Shown here: positions 581 through 12,035 of the stretch, in pieces
Numbering within the stretch: the stretch's first letter is position 1
How the letters are laid out: each line of letters opens with the position of its first letter
DNA from: a virus
Direction: 5' to 3' (one strand)
DNA length: 13,309 nt
UHGV virus genome: UHGV-0315017
Made by a program: the position numbers and the translations under genes
The notes under the pieces: model-generated
What the model was told of the DNA's origin: nothing
What the model saw: the letters and a program-made list of their open reading frames with translations, nothing else
Databases searched by the model: none

Positions 581-603
581 TTTATAAGCTATCAGCCGGA
601 TTT

Positions 604-660
604 TTTAGTTATACGTTTAGTTATACGGGCTGGCGTATAACTAAAGCCGTATAACTAAAA
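604..660. repeat. Arm-type repeat cluster: two direct copies of TTAGTTATACG followed by two inverted copies CGTATAACTAA (candidate integrase arm sites)
   Basis: TTAGTTATACGTTTAGTTATACGG gctgg CGTATAACTAAAGCCGTATAACTAA read directly; the direct-copy half recurs at 11928-11952. Confidence 0.55.
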
Positions 661-3363: not shown

Positions 3364-3561
3364 ATGGTTGCTGTAAATCATATACCACACCTTGTACACA
3401 CACAAACGGCCTTTGTGTGGCGTTTTCTGGCACTGAGTGCCGGAGAATCTCAAATCATCCACGTAACCGCCTGGACGGAACGCGAAGCGCGTGGCCGTTG
3501 CCCGTCCGGTTGTGTTGCAGTATTCGCCGCCCGTATTCGTCAGGGGTCACATCATGCGTAA
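3364..3561 (+). CDS. Hypothetical small protein, paralog A (65 aa)
   Basis: AGGAG SD 7 nt upstream; shares FVWRF...TEREAR...ARIRQG motifs with the product of 3848-4015. Confidence 0.5.
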   Translation: MVAVNHIPHLVHTQTAFVWRFLALSAGESQIIHVTAWTEREARGRCPSGCVAVFAARIRQGSHHA

Positions 3562-3683: not shown

Positions 3684-3847
3684 GTGTCCGTAAGCCTACC
3701 CATACCCGCATTATGGCGGGGCGTAACGGGGGAGCCTTTGCGCTCGCTGGTTCCTACAGTGCCAGTCTGCTAACCCTGTTACGTCTCGCCACCCCGTTTA
3801 GCAGCGTAGTAGCGAGACTCCTTAAAATTACTGTAGGAGCCTTTCAC

Positions 3848-4015
3848 ATGGCTGTATCCGCACGCCCTTACTTTGTCTGGCGCTTTATGCAGTGCCAGGA
3901 AAAACAAACATCACTCTTTACCGTCACGGCAGCAACAGAACGCGAAGCCCGCGCCCAGCTGCCGCACGCACATCTGATTTTTGTCGCCCGTATTCGTCAG
4001 GGGGTAGGCTTATGA
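3848..4015 (+). CDS. Hypothetical small protein, paralog B (55 aa)
   Basis: AGGAGCC SD 9 nt upstream of ATG 3848; C-terminal 46 aa align with paralog A. The 174-aa ORF-track call from 3491 is rejected. Confidence 0.5.
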   Translation: MAVSARPYFVWRFMQCQEKQTSLFTVTAATEREARAQLPHAHLIFVARIRQGVGL

Positions 4016-4462: not shown

Positions 4463-4682
4463 AATCGATTTTGAAGTATTAATCCACTCTGAAAACGCAT
4501 TAATTAAAGCACGCGAAATGAATGCGTTGTTAATTAAATTAATTGAAGTGCCGGAAGGTGGCGAAGATCATTCATCATTAATGTTTGCCGCTGTTCAGAC
4601 ATTATTGACACCTGTTATTGATGAACTCAATAAGGCTATGGCAATTCACGAGAATAATAAAGCGCCCCACACCGGAGAATAA
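4455..4682 (+). CDS. Hypothetical protein (75 aa) in AT-rich segment, overlaps the previous gene
   Basis: GGAGAA SD 8 nt before ATG 4455; start overlaps the stop of 4232-4462. Confidence 0.5.
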   Translation: MHKIDFEVLIHSENALIKAREMNALLIKLIEVPEGGEDHSSLMFAAVQTLLTPVIDELNKAMAIHENNKAPHTGE

Positions 4683-4687
4683 AAATA

Positions 4688-4987
4688 ATGAAACTTAAAT
4701 ATTCTGGCTTAACTGCCAGTGGCAAAACTCGCACTAAATTCATGCGCGGTGATATTTACCGCGACCAGTACGGCGGCACGGTAATGATTAAGGGCGTGGA
4801 GGAACGGCGCATCACCTACCGTCGTGAAGGCTACGAATATGATTGCGTGATGCCTGTTTATCAGTTTCGGCGTGATTTTTCTCTGGTACAGGCAGCGCCC
4901 CGCAGTAAACCAACCAGCAGGGAGAAAGCACGCGCCAATATTCAGGAAATAAAAAAGATGCTTAACGTATTCAGGGGTAAAAAATGA
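4688..4987 (+). CDS. Hypothetical protein (99 aa) immediately upstream of and coupled to the primase gene
   Basis: GGAGAA SD; stop overlaps the primase start (ATGA at 4984-4987). Confidence 0.55.
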   Translation: MKLKYSGLTASGKTRTKFMRGDIYRDQYGGTVMIKGVEERRITYRREGYEYDCVMPVYQFRRDFSLVQAAPRSKPTSREKARANIQEIKKMLNVFRGKK

Positions 4988-6732
4988 AACTGGCACCGAA
5001 CGTAAAAAAACAACCACGCGGAATAAAACACAAAGACACAGAGGTAATTATTTTCGCGGGTAGTGATGCGTGGGCACATGCAAAACAGTGGCAGGAGCAG
5101 GACGGCCCCGCATCCGGCGATAATGTGCCGCCTGTGTGGCTTGGGCCAAATCAGCTTGCCGAACTTGATGCACTGAAAATTGTTCCGGATGGAAAAAAAC
5201 GCGTAAGGCTGTACCAGGCCGGAGAACTGGATTTGGTGGAGACCAAAAAGATTGGTCAGAAGCTGGCGGCGGCAGATATTCAGGACGCAAATTTTTACCA
5301 CGAAGGAATGCACGTCCAGAAGTGTGAAAACTGGCGGCGCTATCTGAATGCTGAGCGTGAAAATATTGCCGCAGGGCTTACCATGCCGGAGCAGAAAAAT
5401 ACGCAACTGGCACAAATGGCAGACAGTGAGCGCGCGCAGCTGCTTGCCGAGCGCTTTGATGGCGTTTGTGTGCATCAGGAAAGTGAAATCGTTCACGTAT
5501 GGCGCGGCGGGGTATGGTGTCCGGTCAGCACAATGGAACTTAGCCGCGAAATGGTGGCGATCTATTCAGAGCACAGGGCCACTTTCAGCAAGCGCGTAAT
5601 CAATAACGCCGTGGAAGCGTTAAAAGTTATTGCCGAACCAATGGGCGAGCCGTCCGGCGATTTGCTGCCGTTCGCCAATGGTGCGCTTGACCTGAAAACG
5701 GGGGAATTTTCCCCGCACACGCCGGAGAACTGGATCACCACGCACAACGGCATTGAGTACACGCCACCAGCACCTGGGGAGAACATCCGCGATAACGCGC
5801 CAAACTTTCATAAATGGCTTAAGCACGCAGCCGGAAAAGACCCGCGCAAGATGATGCGTATATGTGCCGCGCTGTACATGATTATGGCGAACCGGTACGA
5901 CTGGCAGATGTTTATTGAGGCCACCGGAGACGGCGGGAGCGGTAAAAGTACATTCACGCACATAGCCAGCCTTCTGGCAGGGAAACAGAACACGGTAAGC
6001 GCTGAAATGACATCGCTTGATGATGCTGGTGGACGTGCGCAGGTTGTCGGGAGTCGTCTTATCGTCCTGGCTGACCAGCCGAAATATACAGGCGAAGGAA
6101 CGGGCATCAAGAAAATCACGGGCGGTGACCCCGTGGAAATTAACCCGAAATACGAAAAGCGTTTCACGGCTGTAATCAGGGCGGTGGTGCTGGCGACCAA
6201 CAATAACCCGATGATATTCACCGAACGGGCCGGAGGTGTGGCACGTCGTCGCGTGATTTTCCGTTTCGACAATATCGTCAGTGAGGCCGAAAAAGACAGG
6301 GAGCTACCGGAAAAGATCGCGGCTGAAATCCCTGTCATTATCCGCCGATTGCTGGCGAACTTTACCGACCCTGAGAAGGCACGGGCTTTACTACTGGAAC
6401 AGCGTGACGGTGATGAAGCTCTGGCAATAAAGCAACAGACGGATCCGGTTATTGAGTTTTGCCAGTTCCTGAATTTTCTGGAGGAAGCACGCGGCCTGAT
6501 GATGGGCGGCGGTGGCGATTCAGTGAAGTACACGACCAGGAACAGCCTTTACCGCGTCTATCTGGCGTTTATGGCATACGCAGGCAGGAGCAAACCGCTA
6601 AACGTAAATGACTTTGGCAAGGCTATGAAGCCTGCCGCAAAAGTTTACGGACATGAATATATTACGCGGAAAGTTAAGGGGGTAACGCAGACTAACGCAA
6701 TAACAACAGACGAGTGCGACGCGTTTTTATAA
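4984..6732 (+). CDS. Replication initiator: primase / SF3 (D5-like) helicase, P4 alpha-like C-terminal region
   Basis: 582 aa with Walker A GDGGSGKST and downstream helicase-like motifs; size and position match the pri-rep genes of P4-like and PICI elements. Confidence 0.85.
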   Translation: MKLAPNVKKQPRGIKHKDTEVIIFAGSDAWAHAKQWQEQDGPASGDNVPPVWLGPNQLAELDALKIVPDGKKRVRLYQAGELDLVETKKIGQKLAAADIQDANFYHEGMHVQKCENWRRYLNAERENIAAGLTMPEQKNTQLAQMADSERAQLLAERFDGVCVHQESEIVHVWRGGVWCPVSTMELSREMVAIYSEHRATFSKRVINNAVEALKVIAEPMGEPSGDLLPFANGALDLKTGEFSPHTPENWITTHNGIEYTPPAPGENIRDNAPNFHKWLKHAAGKDPRKMMRICAALYMIMANRYDWQMFIEATGDGGSGKSTFTHIASLLAGKQNTVSAEMTSLDDAGGRAQVVGSRLIVLADQPKYTGEGTGIKKITGGDPVEINPKYEKRFTAVIRAVVLATNNNPMIFTERAGGVARRRVIFRFDNIVSEAEKDRELPEKIAAEIPVIIRRLLANFTDPEKARALLLEQRDGDEALAIKQQTDPVIEFCQFLNFLEEARGLMMGGGGDSVKYTTRNSLYRVYLAFMAYAGRSKPLNVNDFGKAMKPAAKVYGHEYITRKVKGVTQTNAITTDECDAFL

Positions 6733-6744
6733 TTTTTTGTAATT

Positions 6745-6972
6745 GCTGTCTACCCTGTCTACCCGAGTAAAGAAAAATACATTTAATTCAGTGCATTAAG
6801 TTAGGTAGATGGCCTTTTTTTACTGTCTACCCACTATCTACCCTCTCTACCTGATTTTACCTGAATCAGACAGGGAGGTAGACACGGGGTAGATACTGGA
6901 TAAAAGCACTCTACCCCGCTGAAAGCCGCGCCATTACTGGTATGAGGGCCACTAAGGTAGATAAGGTAGACA
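6745..6972. repeat. Iteron array (candidate replication origin): about 12 copies of TCTACC(C) / GGTAGA(C/T) in both orientations
   Basis: CTGTCTACCCTGTCTACCC, GGTAGATGG, CTGTCTACCCACTATCTACCCTCTCTACC, GAGGTAGACACGGGGTAGAT, CTCTACCCC, AAGGTAGATAAGGTAGAC; non-coding and immediately downstream of the primase-helicase gene. Confidence 0.65.
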
Positions 6973-7020
6973 AGGGGAGGCACAACTCAAAACTTTTTAA
7001 ACGAGGGGGTAAAAATAAAT

Positions 7021-7299
7021 ATGCACACTTCAGGGAAATTTAATAAATCACTCAAAAAACGCAGAGACAGAACAGAACCGAAATATCGCGCGTTAGACAT
7101 TACAGAGCACGCTTTAAAGGTGGCAATCAGAACGATAGACCGCCACGCGGGGGAAGGATACGCGAAAGCACATCCCGAACTGATAAGCGCATTCATGACC
7201 ACGACGGCGGCAAATTTTGCCACGCTGACAGAGCGGGAGATTGCCGAAGCGGAACAGGTAACAACCATCAACGTTAAAACCGGAGAGGTGGAATCATGA
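7021..7299 (+). CDS. Hypothetical protein (92 aa)
   Basis: GAGGGGG upstream of ATG; coupled to the ssb start (ATGA at 7296-7299). Confidence 0.55.
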   Translation: MHTSGKFNKSLKKRRDRTEPKYRALDITEHALKVAIRTIDRHAGEGYAKAHPELISAFMTTTAANFATLTEREIAEAEQVTTINVKTGEVES

Positions 7300-7706
7300 C
7301 AGCACAGATAGCCGCTTACGGGCGGCTAGTGGACGACCCGCAGGTAAAACAGACCAGCAAGGGCACACCGATGACGCTGGCGCGTATGGCGGTATCGTTG
7401 CCATGTAGTCAGGCGCAGGATGGGCAGGCGACGTTATGGCTATCGGTCATCGCATTTGGTAAGCAGGCCGACTTCCTGGCTAAACATCAAAAAGGCGACG
7501 TTGCCAGCGTATCCGGCACGATGCAGGTCAGCCAGTGGACCGGACAGAACGGGGAAACGCGGCAGGGTTATCAGGTTATTGCAGACAGCGTAATCAGTGC
7601 CCGTGCGGCACGTCCTGGCGGGAACAGACGCAAAACCACAGGCACACAGGGTAATCAGCCACCAGCGGGAGACGATGACCCCTACGGTGATGATATTCCG
7701 TTCTGA
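7296..7706 (+). CDS. ssb: Single-stranded DNA-binding protein (compact, 136 aa)
   Basis: OB-fold-like N-terminal region, Gly/Gln/Pro-rich linker and acidic C-terminal tail DDDPYGDDIPF matching the conserved SSB tail (...DDDIPF). Confidence 0.85.
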   Translation: MTAQIAAYGRLVDDPQVKQTSKGTPMTLARMAVSLPCSQAQDGQATLWLSVIAFGKQADFLAKHQKGDVASVSGTMQVSQWTGQNGETRQGYQVIADSVISARAARPGGNRRKTTGTQGNQPPAGDDDPYGDDIPF

Positions 7707-7714
7707 ACGCACAG

Positions 7715-7736
7715 GCCGGAGAAAATCCGGCTTTTT
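7715..7736 (+). terminator. Rho-independent terminator after ssb
   Basis: GCCGGA gaaaa TCCGGC hairpin plus TTTTT. Confidence 0.75.
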
Positions 7737-7742
7737 GTATCC

Positions 7743-7786
7743 AAAAAAAGCCCGATAAGTACAGGAGGAAGCTTATCGGGCTTTTG
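7743..7786. terminator. Second hairpin terminator (bidirectional: A-run upstream, T-run downstream)
   Basis: GCCCGATAAG ... CTTATCGGGC 10-bp stem, 12-nt loop, then TTTT. Confidence 0.6.
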
Positions 7787-7858
7787 CTTACGAGGTTAAC
7801 AGCATGGTGACTACTGTTGCCGTAAATCATTTCATAATTTGCAACGTAACTCAATTTC

Positions 7859-7908
7859 ATTGCGCAAAATGCAATCCTGATTATAATCAGGACTGGATGA
7901 ACATCCAG
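7859..7908 (+). promoter_or_regulatory. Candidate capsid-operon promoter (TTGCGC - 16 bp - TATAAT) embedded in an 18-bp perfect palindrome, followed by a second palindrome
   Basis: TCCTGATTATAATCAGGA (7875-7892) contains a consensus -10 hexamer; CTGGATGAACATCCAG (7893-7908) follows directly; about 35 nt upstream of the ATG at 7944. Confidence 0.5.
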
Positions 7909-7943
7909 TTATGATTTTTTAAGTCAAAGAGGAATTTCTTACT

Positions 7944-9206
7944 ATGGCTGAAGAGAAAAAAGGCGGTGTTTCGGTGTACATAAGCCCCGACATCGTGAAG
8001 GCGCTCAAGGAACGCCACCAGCAGAACGTAAAAGCAGGCATTGCGGCAGGACTTGACCCGCTGGCGATGGTTGAGCCGTCAACAGGCTGGCAGGTACGCG
8101 CCTATTTACGCGCGGCGCTGGGTATGAATCAGGTTCACGGGGGGGGAATAATGACAGTAAAAGCAATGGCACTTAACACTAACCAGCTTTTTGCGTACCT
8201 GAATCGCGAGGATATTGCGGAATTTAAATTCAGTCCGCTGTTTACCACGCTGTTTTTCCCGAACGTGGCGACATTCAGCACGCAAAACATCATGCTGGAT
8301 ACCCTGGACATTGAAGAAGTCACCATGTCGGCGTTTTGTTCGCCTATGGTGGGTAGCCAGGTTCAGCGCGATAAAGGGTACGAAACCAGCACAATCAAAC
8401 CTGGCTACATGAAGCCAAAGCACGAAATCGATCCAACGAAAACCATCATGCGCATGGCTGGAGAAGATCCGGCACAGCTTAACGACCCTACCTATCGCCG
8501 TATGCGCCTGATTACTGGCAATATGCGCCGCCAGATAAACGCCATAAAAGCGCGCGTGGAATGGCTGGCGGTAAATGCGGTAACGACCGGAAAAAACATC
8601 ATTGAGGGCGAAGGCATAGAGCGCTATGAAATCGACTGGAAGATACCGGAAAAAAACATCATAGAGCAGGCCGACGGTAAAAAATGGTCAGAGCAGGACA
8701 AAGAAATCCACGATCCAATCTATGATATCGAACTATACGCCGATCAGGCAGGTTGCCCCGCCAACGTCATGATTATGGGCGCTGAGGTATGGCGAACGTT
8801 ACGCAGCTTTAAAAAATTCCGTGAGCTGTACGATCTTTCCCGTGGTTCAGAGTCCGCCGCAGAGCTGGCATGTAAAAACCTGGGCGAAGTGGTGAGCTTT
8901 AAAGGCTATCTGGGCGATATTGCCCTTATCGTCTATTCCGGCAAATACGCCGACAGTGACGGCAGAGAAAAATATTTCCTTGAGCCTGATTTGCTTGTCC
9001 TGGGCAACACCAACAATAAAGGGCTGGTGGCCTATGGTGCGATTATGGATCAGGACGCAGTAAGAACGGGGGCAACGCAAAACATGTACTACCCGAAAAA
9101 CTGGATTGAGGACGGAGATCCGGCGATTGAGTACGTGCAGACACACAGTGCACCGCAGCCGGTACCGGCAGTTATTCGCAAATTTGTTACCGTCAAAATT
9201 GGTTAA
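7944..9206 (+). CDS. Major capsid protein, lambda gpE-like, with about 70-aa N-terminal extension
   Basis: Long blocks shared with lambda gpE as recalled: KFSPLF..LFF, PGYMKPKHE, EDPAQLNDPTYRRMR, SFKGYLGDIALIVYSGKY, LVLGNT, YPKNW..GDPA. AGAGGA SD before ATG 7944. Confidence 0.88.
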   Translation: MAEEKKGGVSVYISPDIVKALKERHQQNVKAGIAAGLDPLAMVEPSTGWQVRAYLRAALGMNQVHGGGIMTVKAMALNTNQLFAYLNREDIAEFKFSPLFTTLFFPNVATFSTQNIMLDTLDIEEVTMSAFCSPMVGSQVQRDKGYETSTIKPGYMKPKHEIDPTKTIMRMAGEDPAQLNDPTYRRMRLITGNMRRQINAIKARVEWLAVNAVTTGKNIIEGEGIERYEIDWKIPEKNIIEQADGKKWSEQDKEIHDPIYDIELYADQAGCPANVMIMGAEVWRTLRSFKKFRELYDLSRGSESAAELACKNLGEVVSFKGYLGDIALIVYSGKYADSDGREKYFLEPDLLVLGNTNNKGLVAYGAIMDQDAVRTGATQNMYYPKNWIEDGDPAIEYVQTHSAPQPVPAVIRKFVTVKIG

Positions 9207-9217
9207 CGGGGGATTCT

Positions 9218-9553
9218 ATGGACACTCCATACATTGAGTTATTTGCAGGCAGTCAGCAGGTCGCCACGACGCTGGTACATTTTGCCGCTGATGCTGGCTT
9301 TATTCAGGAATTTACCCCGCTGATGCTGGCGGACAATGGCGAGTTTAAGCCGTGGGATGGTAAGGAATCTGGCAAGGCTGTTTATCTGACCTCGTACCCT
9401 GTGGACACGTCAAAGCAGAAATCAGCACAGTGTTACAAGACGGGGATATTCAATATTGCCGCCGTTAACTGGCCTGAGAGCGTCGACACCGATGCGAAAA
9501 AATGCGCCGCCTTTGCGGGTTCCGGCGTATCCGTTCAGCCGCTGGCCCGATAA
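9218..9553 (+). CDS. Head decoration protein, lambda gpD-like
   Basis: 111 aa; TPLML, WDG, YKTGIF, WPE and KK.AAFAG blocks match lambda gpD (110 aa) as recalled; GGGGG SD. Confidence 0.85.
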   Translation: MDTPYIELFAGSQQVATTLVHFAADAGFIQEFTPLMLADNGEFKPWDGKESGKAVYLTSYPVDTSKQKSAQCYKTGIFNIAAVNWPESVDTDAKKCAAFAGSGVSVQPLAR

Positions 9554-9565
9554 GCAGGGGGAACG

Positions 9566-9979
9566 ATGGCAACGAATGAAAGCATCATGACGCTACCGCT
9601 GGCGAGTAAATTTAAAGCCGAAGCGCGGGCAATGGCTGACAGAGGTTTATCAACCTATGAGGCCGTATATCAACTAAACAAACTGGAAGAGCAGGACAAG
9701 CCGCGCGCTGATGCGATTATGGCGCTTCATGAGCATAAAGACTATCAGCCGCTGTTGCGTGCAATGGCAAACGTGCCTTGTATCGATGTTGGTACGGCTA
9801 AAAGCATCCTTAGCATGACCATAGAGCAGGAACGCCAGAAGGTTGCACCAGAGCTTACCGCAGCCTTTGAAAACTTTATGGACATGCACAGCCCGCAAGC
9901 CGTATCAGCTGGCATGGCATACGATGGCAGAAACCAGGGCGATGACGGCGACATCGATCGCATACTGAAAACCATCTGA
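9566..9979 (+). CDS. Hypothetical protein (137 aa) between the decoration gene and cos
   Basis: AGGGGGA SD; acidic C-terminus (QGDDGDIDRILKTI); no family recognised. Confidence 0.6.
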   Translation: MATNESIMTLPLASKFKAEARAMADRGLSTYEAVYQLNKLEEQDKPRADAIMALHEHKDYQPLLRAMANVPCIDVGTAKSILSMTIEQERQKVAPELTAAFENFMDMHSPQAVSAGMAYDGRNQGDDGDIDRILKTI

Positions 9980-9985
9980 GACAAG

Positions 9986-10009
9986 GCCGGAGAAATCCGG
10001 CTTTTTTTT
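9986..10009 (+). terminator. Rho-independent terminator (near-duplicate of the 7715-7736 hairpin)
   Basis: GCCGGA gaaa TCCGGC plus TTTTTTTT. Confidence 0.8.
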
Positions 10010-10010
10010 A

Positions 10011-10086
10011 CGGGTCCTTTCCGGCATATGGACCCGTTACGGGGCGGCGACCTCGCGGTTTTTCGCTATTTATGAGCTTTTTCAGG
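10011..10086 (+). other. Lambda-type cos site X (cosQ-like, cosN, I2-like); cohesive-end 12-mer at 10042-10053
   Basis: ACGGGTCCTTTCCGG...CCGTTACG|GGGCGGCGACCT|CGCGGTTTTTCGCTATTTATGA closely matches the lambda right-end/left-end junction as recalled (…CGGGTCCTTTCCGGTGATCCGACAGGTTACG | GGGCGGCGACCTCGCGGGTTTTCGCTATTTATGAAA). Confidence 0.8.
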
Positions 10087-10186: not shown

Positions 10187-10729
10187 ATGAAATCGCACCT
10201 GATGAACAAAAAAAACATGGCGAAAAGCTGCCGTGTAAGTGCGACAGCGTTCGACAAGTGGGGAGTGACTCCCGTTGAACGTAAAGGCCGTGAGGCGTTT
10301 TACGATGTTGCCAGCGTGATAGACAATAGGGTTAACAATGCAATTAGCCAGCTTACAAACGACAAAGGCGATATTGATGATGATGAACTCTTACGAGTCA
10401 GGATCAGATTACTGACAGCACAGGCGGAGGCGCAGGAACTTAAAAACGAGCGCGATCGCGGTGACGTGATTGATACTGAGTTTTGCCTGTACGCGCTTTC
10501 AAAGCTGGCGAGTCAGATTTCATCAATCATGGACAGCCTCCCGCTTACTATGCAAAGGAGCTTCCCACAGATTACCCCCGCCATGCTGGATAGGCTTAAA
10601 AGGGAAGTGGTTAAAGCCTGTAATGCCAGTGCCAGAGTTGCCGACAACCTCCCACAGATACTGGCTGATTACTTGAAAGAAACAACCGGAAACGTACCGG
10701 AAAAGTTGCTACAGAAGAAAGGCGAGTAA
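10187..10729 (+). CDS. Terminase small subunit, lambda Nu1-like
   Basis: 180 aa (Nu1 is 181); N-terminal HTH region and central block LTAQAEAQELKNERDRGDVIDTEFCLYALSKLASQISSIMDSLPLTMQRSFP align with lambda Nu1 (LTRAQADAQELKNARDSAEVVETAFCTFVLSRIAGEIASILDGLPLSVQRRFP) as recalled. Confidence 0.85.
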   Translation: MKSHLMNKKNMAKSCRVSATAFDKWGVTPVERKGREAFYDVASVIDNRVNNAISQLTNDKGDIDDDELLRVRIRLLTAQAEAQELKNERDRGDVIDTEFCLYALSKLASQISSIMDSLPLTMQRSFPQITPAMLDRLKREVVKACNASARVADNLPQILADYLKETTGNVPEKLLQKKGE

Positions 10730-11167: not shown

Positions 11168-11231
11168 CTGGTTGATATTTTCGGAAACCTCAATTTGAGG
11201 AGGCCGGAAGCGTCACCCTTTAGATTCTGAA

Positions 11232-11246
11232 TGGTGATAATCACCA
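11232..11246. repeat. 15-bp palindrome TGGTGATAATCACCA (copy 1 of 3)
   Basis: Perfect palindrome; flanked CTGAA...CGCC. Confidence 0.6.
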
Positions 11247-11255
11247 CGCCCAATC

Positions 11256-11290: not shown

Positions 11291-11399
11291 AAAAGACGGT
11301 TTAACCGTTAATTAAAAATCGACGGGATTTTGTGTTTTCCGGACGACGTGGCCAACGTCATTTTTTAGCGAAAAATTCTGATTAAGGTCATTGTCTGAA

Positions 11400-11414
11400 T
11401 GGTCATAATGACCA
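11400..11414. repeat. 15-bp palindrome TGGTCATAATGACCA (copy 2 of 3)
   Basis: Perfect palindrome, preceded by CTGAA like copy 1. Confidence 0.6.
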
Positions 11415-11494
11415 CGCAGACCATCAAGGCAACCATAACGATTTTCGTTACGGTTGATGTGTGCCTTCGTCCGGCATTCGGACGATATAAGGGA

Positions 11495-11509
11495 TGGTCA
11501 TAATGACCA
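11495..11509. repeat. 15-bp palindrome TGGTCATAATGACCA (copy 3 of 3)
   Basis: Identical to copy 2. Confidence 0.6.
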
Positions 11510-11657
11510 CTCCTACAGAACAGGTAAAACCCACCAGCCTGATTAACAGTTAACCGGAAAAAAATCCGGCATGGGGGGGGAGTGGTTAGCCACGAACAAC
11601 GAATAAGCTGGACACCGCGCCCCCTCTCACGCAGAGAAAAAATTACCGTTTCGTAGT

Positions 11658-11822: not shown

Positions 11823-11927
11823 GAACATCCACCAGCTTAAAAACGAATGAGCGAAAAAAAATCCAGGTAGAATCATGGAAGTCGCTAGGGCAATCGCCGT
11901 TTAAATTGTGCATTTTTTCAGCAAATT

Positions 11928-11952
11928 ATTTTAGTTATACGTTTGGTTATAC
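11928..11952 (+). repeat. Arm-type direct repeat TTTTAGTTATACGTTTGGTTATACGG, partner of 604-628
   Basis: 24 of 25 positions identical to the left-end copy. Confidence 0.55.
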
Positions 11953-12003
11953 GGTTTAAAAGTTGAATCAATAATATTTATTAAAATCATGCGGTTACAC
12001 GCT

Positions 12004-12035
12004 AAATTAAACTACTCTCGTGGACCAAAAATCCC
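12004..12035 (+). other. Putative attR core: degenerate copy of the tRNA-Pro 3' end
   Basis: TAAATTAAACTACTCTCGTGGACCAAAAATCCC versus tRNA TTCAAATCCTCTCGTGCCGACCAAATCGCCC. Confidence 0.5.

Follow-up and report, generated by a model that had tools for sequence, protein, structure and literature searches.

The window analysed here is the whole 13,309-nucleotide stretch of DNA, and its insert is an E. coli phage satellite, a PICI of the EcCICFT073 type. Alignment to the K-12 proL-yejO region assigns positions 1-484 and 12007 onward to the chromosome, and about 11.5 kb between attL and attR is missing from the K-12 proL-yejO site. The integration target of the island is a tRNA-Pro (GGG) gene at 406-482, recognized by ARAGORN and Rfam tRNA and corresponding to proL of K-12; this gene and all features described below lie on the plus strand, except for the candidate origin, to which no strand is assigned. 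The attL core CTCTCGTGCCGACCAAA (468-484) lies at the 3' end of the tRNA, and the alignment to the empty K-12 site breaks at 484. At 12015-12029, shortly after the K-12 alignment resumes at 12007, the 3' end of the tRNA is repeated imperfectly as the attR core CTCTCGTGGACCAAA; both cores were located by pattern search. The flanks of the window are matched in 5426 of 5426 complete E. coli genomes, while at least 80% of the window is covered in only 66.

The main island genes are all transcribed rightward. At the left end, a tyrosine integrase (673-1932) has P4-type arm-binding, central and catalytic domains (Pfam Arm-DNA-bind_3, Phage_int_M and Phage_integrase). It is followed by an AlpA-like helix-turn-helix regulator (2429-2635), for which the Pfam Phage_AlpA match is weak (E 0.0035; 17.6 bits, under the cut-off of 21); in relatives, including EcCICFT073, the syntenic genes carry the annotation "helix-turn-helix transcriptional regulator". 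A C4 antisense RNA of the P1/P4-type immunity RNA family at 3709-3796 scores 71.5 bits against Rfam RF01695 (gathering score 45), and a gene for a DUF4222 protein (4688-4987; Pfam PF13973, E 6e-24) overlaps the start of the primase gene. The right part of the island encodes homologues of the lambda gpE-type major capsid protein (7944-9206; Pfam Phage_cap_E, E 8e-50) and the lambda gpD-type head decoration protein (9218-9553; Pfam HDPD, E 1e-16), a 137-aa protein resembling the C-terminal part of a head maturation protease/scaffold (9566-9979; phrog_1999 and positions 495-567 of phrog_53), and a homologue of the Nu1-type small terminase (10187-10729; Pfam Phage_Nu1, E 2e-23). These gpE-like, gpD-like, scaffold-like and Nu1-like genes are the only virion-type genes that Pfam and PHROG detect in the window; there is no tail, lysis or complete virion set. 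Because of an extra G in a G run, the gpE-type reading frame at 7944-9206 continues in frame from a small ORF that precedes it.

The insert thus has the general build of a PICI: it is a discrete island of about 11.5 kb, as in the 10-15 kb type, that is integrated at a specific att site and has the integrase gene at its end, and it has its own primase/initiator followed by an iteron-bearing origin. EcCICFT073 presents DUF4222, primase, small ORF, SSB, gpE-like capsid, gpD-like decoration and 137-aa ORF in the same order, and its DNA is 91-96% identical to the window over 4657-10083. The element had been called a satellite in the preliminary description, and the att sites, the EcCICFT073-type gene order and this level of DNA identity bear that out. 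The two islands differ in several respects. The attachment site is tRNA-Pro/yejO in the window and roxA/phoQ in CFT073; a PerC gene lies 3' of the SSB gene in EcCICFT073, with none there in the window; the Nu1-like small terminase gene of the window is replaced by a 435-nt ORF at that place in CFT073; and the integrase and early-region alleles of the window are unlike those of EcCICFT073. Helper-phage induction and packaging have been shown for EcCICFT073 itself (PMC6092414).

The center of the island is a compact replication block. The initiator is a P4-family primase/helicase (4984-6732) with Pfam D5_N, DUF5906 and Pox_D5 matches, and it reaches 109 bits (cut-off 108.7) against NCBIfam TIGR01613, "phage/plasmid primase, P4 family". 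Immediately downstream lies a candidate replication origin (6746-6977), in which 11 TCTACC cores (TGTCTACC / GGTAGAYA) are arranged in both orientations around A+T-rich stretches. Eleven of the 12 TCTACC sites of the whole window fall inside 6749-6970; 3.4 sites are expected per window, and 12 were reached in 0 of 200 shuffles. The PICI ori has been described as lying directly 3' of rep and consisting of an A+T-rich region with iterons on its flanks (PMC6092414), and the succession of primase and iteron cluster in the window has the same layout. The capsid-forming PICI (cf-PICI) of E. coli O26, which has a different primase allele, carries TGTTCACC repeats at the equivalent position; the origin repeats co-vary with the initiator, as iterons would. 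A clone of the EcCICFT073 "rep gene and putative ori" is reported to replicate a plasmid (PMC6092414). If this clone did not include the SSB gene, host SSB would suffice for basal replication.

Between the candidate origin and the SSB gene lies a conserved ORF of 92 aa (7021-7299), which belongs to phrog_1231 (PHROG 1231, E 8e-51) and has no match in Pfam, NCBIfam or PDB. Its homologues form 166 protein clusters, and the 120 listed are almost all from Escherichia/Shigella, with only "hypothetical protein" entries. The C-terminal half is nearly invariant, and AF2 predicts, with low confidence, a hairpin of two helices (pLDDT 63, pTM 0.38). The stop codon of this ORF overlaps the start codon of the SSB gene in the sequence ATGA at 7296-7299, an arrangement of translational coupling. 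Downstream of the SSB gene, a terminator scan finds an intrinsic-terminator-like hairpin followed by a T run (7713-7743), which closes the replication block; sister islands also keep it behind the final gene of their block, and a second copy of this hairpin is present at 9984-10010. Given the order of the block and its terminator, the SSB gene is the last gene of a unit made of initiator, origin, small ORF and SSB.

The SSB gene (7296-7706) begins with ATG at 7296, ends with TGA at 7704-7706 and encodes 136 aa ending in ...DDDPYGDDIPF. A purine-rich, Shine-Dalgarno-like sequence, GGAGAGGTGG, is found at 7282-7291, 4-8 nt before the start. The preliminary description held that the island carries its own 136-aa SSB, and this is confirmed. 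The protein matches Pfam PF00436 (E 4.2e-17; 62.5 bits, cut-off 26) over residues 5-99, NCBIfam TIGR00621 (58.4 bits, cut-off 53.95) and, with E 1e-40, PHROG 44 ("single strand DNA binding protein"). A sequence search of the PDB matches the SSB of E. coli at E 2.4e-6 and 26 SSB sequences in all. An AlphaFold2 model built with 17 homologues shows a beta-barrel and one helix over residues 1-102 (block pLDDT 83-93), while residues 103-136 are modelled as disordered (pLDDT < 50). Foldseek comparison of the model to the PDB returns bacterial SSBs for 50 of the best 50 matches, each with probability 1.00.

The protein is divided into three parts: the OB-fold domain (aa 1-102; 7296-7601), supported by Pfam SSB, AF2 and Foldseek; a disordered linker (aa 103-125; 7602-7670), RAARPGGNRRKTTGTQGNQPPAG, with a net charge of +5 by charge count and pLDDT < 50; and an acidic C-terminal tip, DDDPYGDDIPF, which with the stop codon occupies 7671-7706. 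Two features of the SSB family can be read directly from the sequence: three of the four stacking aromatics are kept (W48, F54 and W81, with the W40 equivalent absent), and a disordered linker leads to an acidic tip of the form D-D-(I/L)-P-F. Among 109 close full-length homologues, the C-terminal end is DDIPF in 68 and DNIPF in 26, and the length of the linker differs among SSB alleles of 136, 140, 141 and 149 aa. Purifying selection acts on the reading frame, as comparison of the OB domain with diverged alleles gives a dN/dS of 0.11-0.21. The gene at 7296-7706 is thus a genuine, intact bacterial-type SSB gene of a PICI replication module, and its product is predicted to bind ssDNA. A chance ORF or a gene read on the wrong strand was considered as well; both are ruled out by the profile matches, the fold model and the dN/dS of 0.11-0.21.

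The chromosomal SSB of E. coli (178 aa; PDB 1EYG and 1EQQ) has the same architecture, with an OB fold, a disordered linker and a C-terminal DDIPF, and its W54, F60 and W88 align with W48, F54 and W81 of the island SSB. The two proteins are 29% identical, and their last five residues are identical, which confirms the host-like, DDIPF-type tail noted earlier. The description of the island SSB as "compact" also holds: it is 136 aa long, whereas the E. coli protein reaches 178, its L23 loop is shortened where the W40 position would fall, and its linker has about 23 residues with a net charge of +5, whereas the linker of E. coli SSB has 56 residues and is near-neutral. The tetramer-interface residue His55 of E. 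coli SSB is replaced by Leu49; since this replacement is accompanied by the absence of a W40 equivalent, the binding mode and the oligomeric state of the island SSB may differ from those of E. coli SSB. A recent copy of the host ssb gene is ruled out as the source of the island gene by the identity of only 29%.

Other mobile elements also carry SSB genes. The Ssb proteins of F-type conjugative plasmids and of phage P1 likewise have a conserved tip and are the products of accessory, non-essential genes, and both are able to replace host SSB. They are, however, close relatives of host SSB, and the island SSB lineage is distant from both. With respect to phage SSBs, the island protein fits the family profile of PHROG 44 (E 1e-40), but the best match in a search of 50,697 phage genomes is 35% identical, and Escherichia phages do not appear among the matching records. 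On these grounds a loan from a known phage is ruled out. The closest known relatives are found in satellites. The SSB of EcCICFT073 (E. coli CFT073, WP_000126698.1) shares 134 of 136 residues with the island SSB, and the SSB gene of the cf-PICI of E. coli O26:H11 11368 (WP_000126691.1) is 99.3% identical in DNA, with an identical translated protein. A whole-library search brings up a broad clade of SSBs that measure about 125-150 aa and mostly have a D-D/E-x-P-F tip.

The SSB DNA is common in E. coli. Of 5426 complete genomes searched by megablast, 1021 contain it, with 1285 locations in total; in 898 of these genomes a match covers at least 80% of the gene, and among the matches listed every E. 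coli match is annotated "single-stranded DNA-binding protein" by the NCBI pipeline. We examined nine E. coli contexts, the prototype included, and 9 of 9 are EcCICFT073-type PICIs or capsid-forming PICIs with the SSB gene directly after the small ORF. The initiators upstream are of different kinds, annotated "DNA primase family", DUF927 or "helicase RepA family". Beyond E. coli, a scan of one genome per species shows relatives with 48-72% identity across Enterobacterales, and at about 32 of about 43 of these loci the SSB gene comes right after the end of a gene for a D5_N-type or DUF927 primase. In four of the exceptions that we inspected (L025, L027, L031 and L033), the SSB gene is preceded by a large primase-like ORF, a truncated primase or an integrase, and a fifth, L034, adjoins prophage-like structural genes. 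The tips of satellite SSBs in these other Enterobacterales are DDEAPF, DDQIPF, NDEPEF and similar sequences. A prophage as the usual setting of the gene, instead of a satellite, is ruled out by the nine E. coli contexts (9/9 PICI or cf-PICI) and by the satellite-type primase upstream in most Enterobacterales loci.

Comparison of the islands indicates that the SSB gene behaves as an exchangeable and optional cassette. The SSB allele of the window is 99.3% identical in DNA to the alleles of the O26 and O157 cf-PICIs and only about 80% identical to the SSB gene of near-identical islands at the yejO site (AVS0530), and according to the alignment recombination took place within the small ORF, in its conserved 3' half. 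The cf-PICI of O26:H11 11368 keeps the order of primase, small ORF and SSB found in the window; it differs in its complete HK97-type module for head and terminase and in its ori, where TGTTCACC repeats replace TGTCTACC. Since a near-identical SSB gene is present in a cf-PICI with another head module and other ori repeats, the SSB module has been exchanged between satellite types. Three arrangements are seen after the origin: small ORF-SSB-PerC in EcCICFT073 and the capsid-forming PICIs, small ORF-SSB in the window and AVS0530, and small ORF-PerC without SSB in the NCTC9112 island, which occupies the same att site as the window. Matches to the conserved part of the small ORF number 1679 in 1300 genomes, and those to the SSB 1285 in 1021; as a megablast estimate and not a census, this suggests that roughly three quarters of such satellites carry the SSB gene. 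Because about one quarter of the sister islands do without it, the island SSB is probably not essential.

Considering this setting, we propose that the island SSB probably acts as an accessory replication SSB, which would coat the DNA unwound at the island origin while its tail recruits host replisome proteins. The preliminary description suggested that the protein could serve island replication, and this part of it finds its support in genomic context: the SSB gene follows the primase/helicase and the iteron origin, is translationally coupled to the small ORF, is closed off by a terminator and holds this place beside several unrelated types of initiator, both in E. coli and throughout Enterobacterales. 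In the proposed process, a helper phage would switch the island on and rightward transcription would yield the primase/helicase, the protein of ORF 7021-7299 and the SSB. The primase/helicase would bind the TGTCTACC iterons at 6746-6977 and open the neighbouring A+T-rich DNA, and the island SSB, presumably as a homotetramer, would then cover the exposed strands. The DDIPF tip may dock host SSB-interacting proteins, above all chi of the Pol III clamp loader, and this docking would allow the host polymerase to extend primers made by the island primase.

Such a process would agree with what is known of related replicons and of the host protein. In vitro, P4 replication driven by the alpha protein relies on SSB and Pol III holoenzyme of the host and is not known to need DnaA, DnaB, DnaC or DnaG, and the known partners of the SSB tip include chi, PriA, RecQ, ExoI and others. 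To our knowledge, lambda and the lambdoid helpers encode no SSB; the benefit of the island gene may thus be an added supply of SSB while helper and island replicate together, the helpers bringing none of their own. We think it likely that the protein is an accessory booster and not a strict requirement. A search of the literature, with thin coverage of subscription journals, found no published functional test of a PICI SSB. A more specialized role is also conceivable, although we consider it unlikely: the SSB lineage, which in Enterobacterales was met only beside satellite replication initiators and which finds nothing more than 35% identical in 50,697 phage genomes, could be a satellite-specific replication factor, whose unusually short basic linker and host-type tip would hand Pol III to satellite primase/helicases over the helper replisome. 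If this were true, a satellite-specific SSB would add to the competitive advantage of the satellite over its helper, beyond topping up SSB.

Other functions can be proposed for the same protein. The island SSB could outcompete host SSB on helper ssDNA, or soak up host partners through its DDIPF tip, thus slowing helper replication or recombination to the advantage of the island; this is the titration or mimicry offered as a second function in the preliminary description. Interference with helpers is a known property of PICIs (PMC6092414), and it would be compatible with a tip identical to that of the host on an OB domain only 29% identical, with the absence from 50,697 phage genomes of any relative that exceeds 35% identity, and with the satellite nature of 9 of 9 E. 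coli contexts examined. However, the SSB gene sits in the replication block by the ori, outside the packaging/interference region; bacterial SSBs in general share a conserved tip; and DDEAPF, DDQIPF and NDEPEF in Enterobacterales satellites mean that an exact copy of the host tip is not maintained. We regard interference as quite improbable. The same fold and tail would serve equally well if the extra SSB mainly barred RecA, nucleases or ssDNA-sensing systems from island ssDNA, damping the SOS response or recombination, and a similar shielding role has been proposed for SSBs in the leading regions of conjugative plasmids. The dispensability of the SSB in about a quarter of sister islands also fits a protective accessory gene. 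PICI DNA, unlike the ssDNA of conjugation, arrives double-stranded in phage capsids, and no psiB-like or anti-restriction partner genes lie nearby; shielding is a doubtful primary function, even though sequence by itself fits shielding and the accessory replication role alike.

An interplay with immunity is far less probable still. It supposes that a non-host SSB triggers or decoys SSB-sensing defences and so alters the outcome of helper infection; Retron-Eco8, AbpAB, Hna and DARNA are reportedly activated by foreign SSBs. Abortive infection, however, would kill the very cell that hosts island replication, no defence gene is adjacent, and the SSB gene is linked to replication initiators and not to defence cargo; the idea is purely speculative. 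The reading of the SSB gene as a non-functional passenger or a decaying gene is strongly disfavoured. It could draw on the absence of the gene from some sister islands, but the DNA is present in 1021 complete E. coli genomes and annotated as SSB in every match among those listed, the OB domain shows a dN/dS of 0.11-0.21, and the start context, the translational coupling and the tail motif are conserved.

The accessory replication role that we prefer concerns a protein that, judged by its sequence, is already known and annotated. "Primase, SSB and DUF5906" make up the replication category of Gram-negative PICIs in PMC10111431, the NCBI pipeline annotates the gene as SSB, and with 134 of 136 residues shared with the SSB of EcCICFT073 the island protein is nearly that of the prototype. 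The preliminary description mentions neither this prior knowledge nor that the gene is probably dispensable. What is added here is the exact placement of the gene by the iteron origin, its behaviour as a cassette, its non-universality and the lack of close relatives in sequenced phages. The replication modules of E. coli PICIs and cf-PICIs commonly include an SSB gene beside the initiator and the origin, and this gene moves as an exchangeable cassette between satellite types and initiator types. Two questions follow, namely whether the supply of SSB limits satellite replication, and whether satellite SSBs are sensed by defences directed at foreign SSBs. Neither is long-standing or specific to the present window, whose SSB gene contributes little more than a tidy annotation.

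Two minor observations concern the wider surroundings of the gene. An IS66-family element lies between the initiator and the small ORF in one E. coli locus. Among the plasmid matches, 3 of the 15 listed show 99% identity, and they are annotated as SSB together with a neighbouring hypothetical protein.

The linker of the island SSB, the 136-residue single-stranded-DNA-binding protein encoded at the end of the replication block, is disordered, short and strongly basic (residues 103-125, window 7602-7670), with a net charge of +5 over 23 residues, whereas the linker of E. coli SSB spans 56 residues and is nearly neutral. This basic stretch adjoins a tip with a net charge of -5, and the length of the linker differs between the SSB alleles of 136, 140, 141 and 149 aa.

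Upstream of the SSB is a 92-aa ORF (window 7021-7299; phrog_1231) of unassigned function, which is translationally coupled to the SSB and, in islands that have no SSB, to PerC. It has no match in Pfam, NCBIfam or PDB; its homologues come from Escherichia or Shigella in almost all of the matches listed, and its C-terminal half is nearly invariant. AF2 models the protein, with low confidence, as a two-helix hairpin. The block takes another form in the capsid-forming PICI of E. coli JNE21-003 (L089), where an IS66-family element separates the RepA-type helicase from the small ORF, and a gene annotated as ProQ/FinO-family (L089 7463-8005) lies 3' of the SSB in place of PerC.

The origin repeats vary with the initiator allele: those of the window island (6746-6977) read TGTCTACC, whereas those of the O26 capsid-forming PICI (L001, about 8480-8720) read TGTTCACC, a sequence that we take to be the phage P4 type I iteron. 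The replication block is closed by a terminator-like hairpin, AGGCCGGAGAAA(A)TCCGGCTTTTT (window 7713-7739), and the same hairpin is present a second time at the end of the capsid block (9984-10010).

Within the capsid block, the gpE-like capsid gene usually starts at the ATG at 8151; here, an extra base in a G run joins a 68-aa upstream ORF to it in frame, giving a fused ORF of 420 aa (window 7944-9206). The run, of eight G, lies in CACGGGGGGGGAATAATG (8132-8150) and takes the place of GGGGGTG in the sister islands; the fusion could be genuine or could be a homopolymer sequencing error. Further along, a 180-aa Nu1-type small terminase homologue (window 10187-10729) occupies the position at which EcCICFT073, the prototype Gram-negative PICI, has a 435-nt ORF (L086 13660-14094); in a BLASTN comparison of the two islands, the Nu1-type gene had no forward-strand match in EcCICFT073. 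A 17-nt palindrome, ATGGTCATAATGACCAC, is present in three copies 3' of this gene (window 11231-11247, 11399-11415 and 11494-11510), and these are candidate sites that could be terminase-binding (cosB-like) or operator sequences.

Just within both island ends lies a 37-nt direct repeat (window 592-628 and 11918-11954), each copy with TTAGTTATACG two times; these repeats are plausibly arm-type binding sites of the integrase. In the early region, a C4 antisense RNA is encoded on the + strand (window 3709-3796; Rfam RF01695, 71.5 bits), in likeness to the P1/P4 immunity systems, and a 24-nt repeat lies on either side of it (3523-3546 and 3980-4003).
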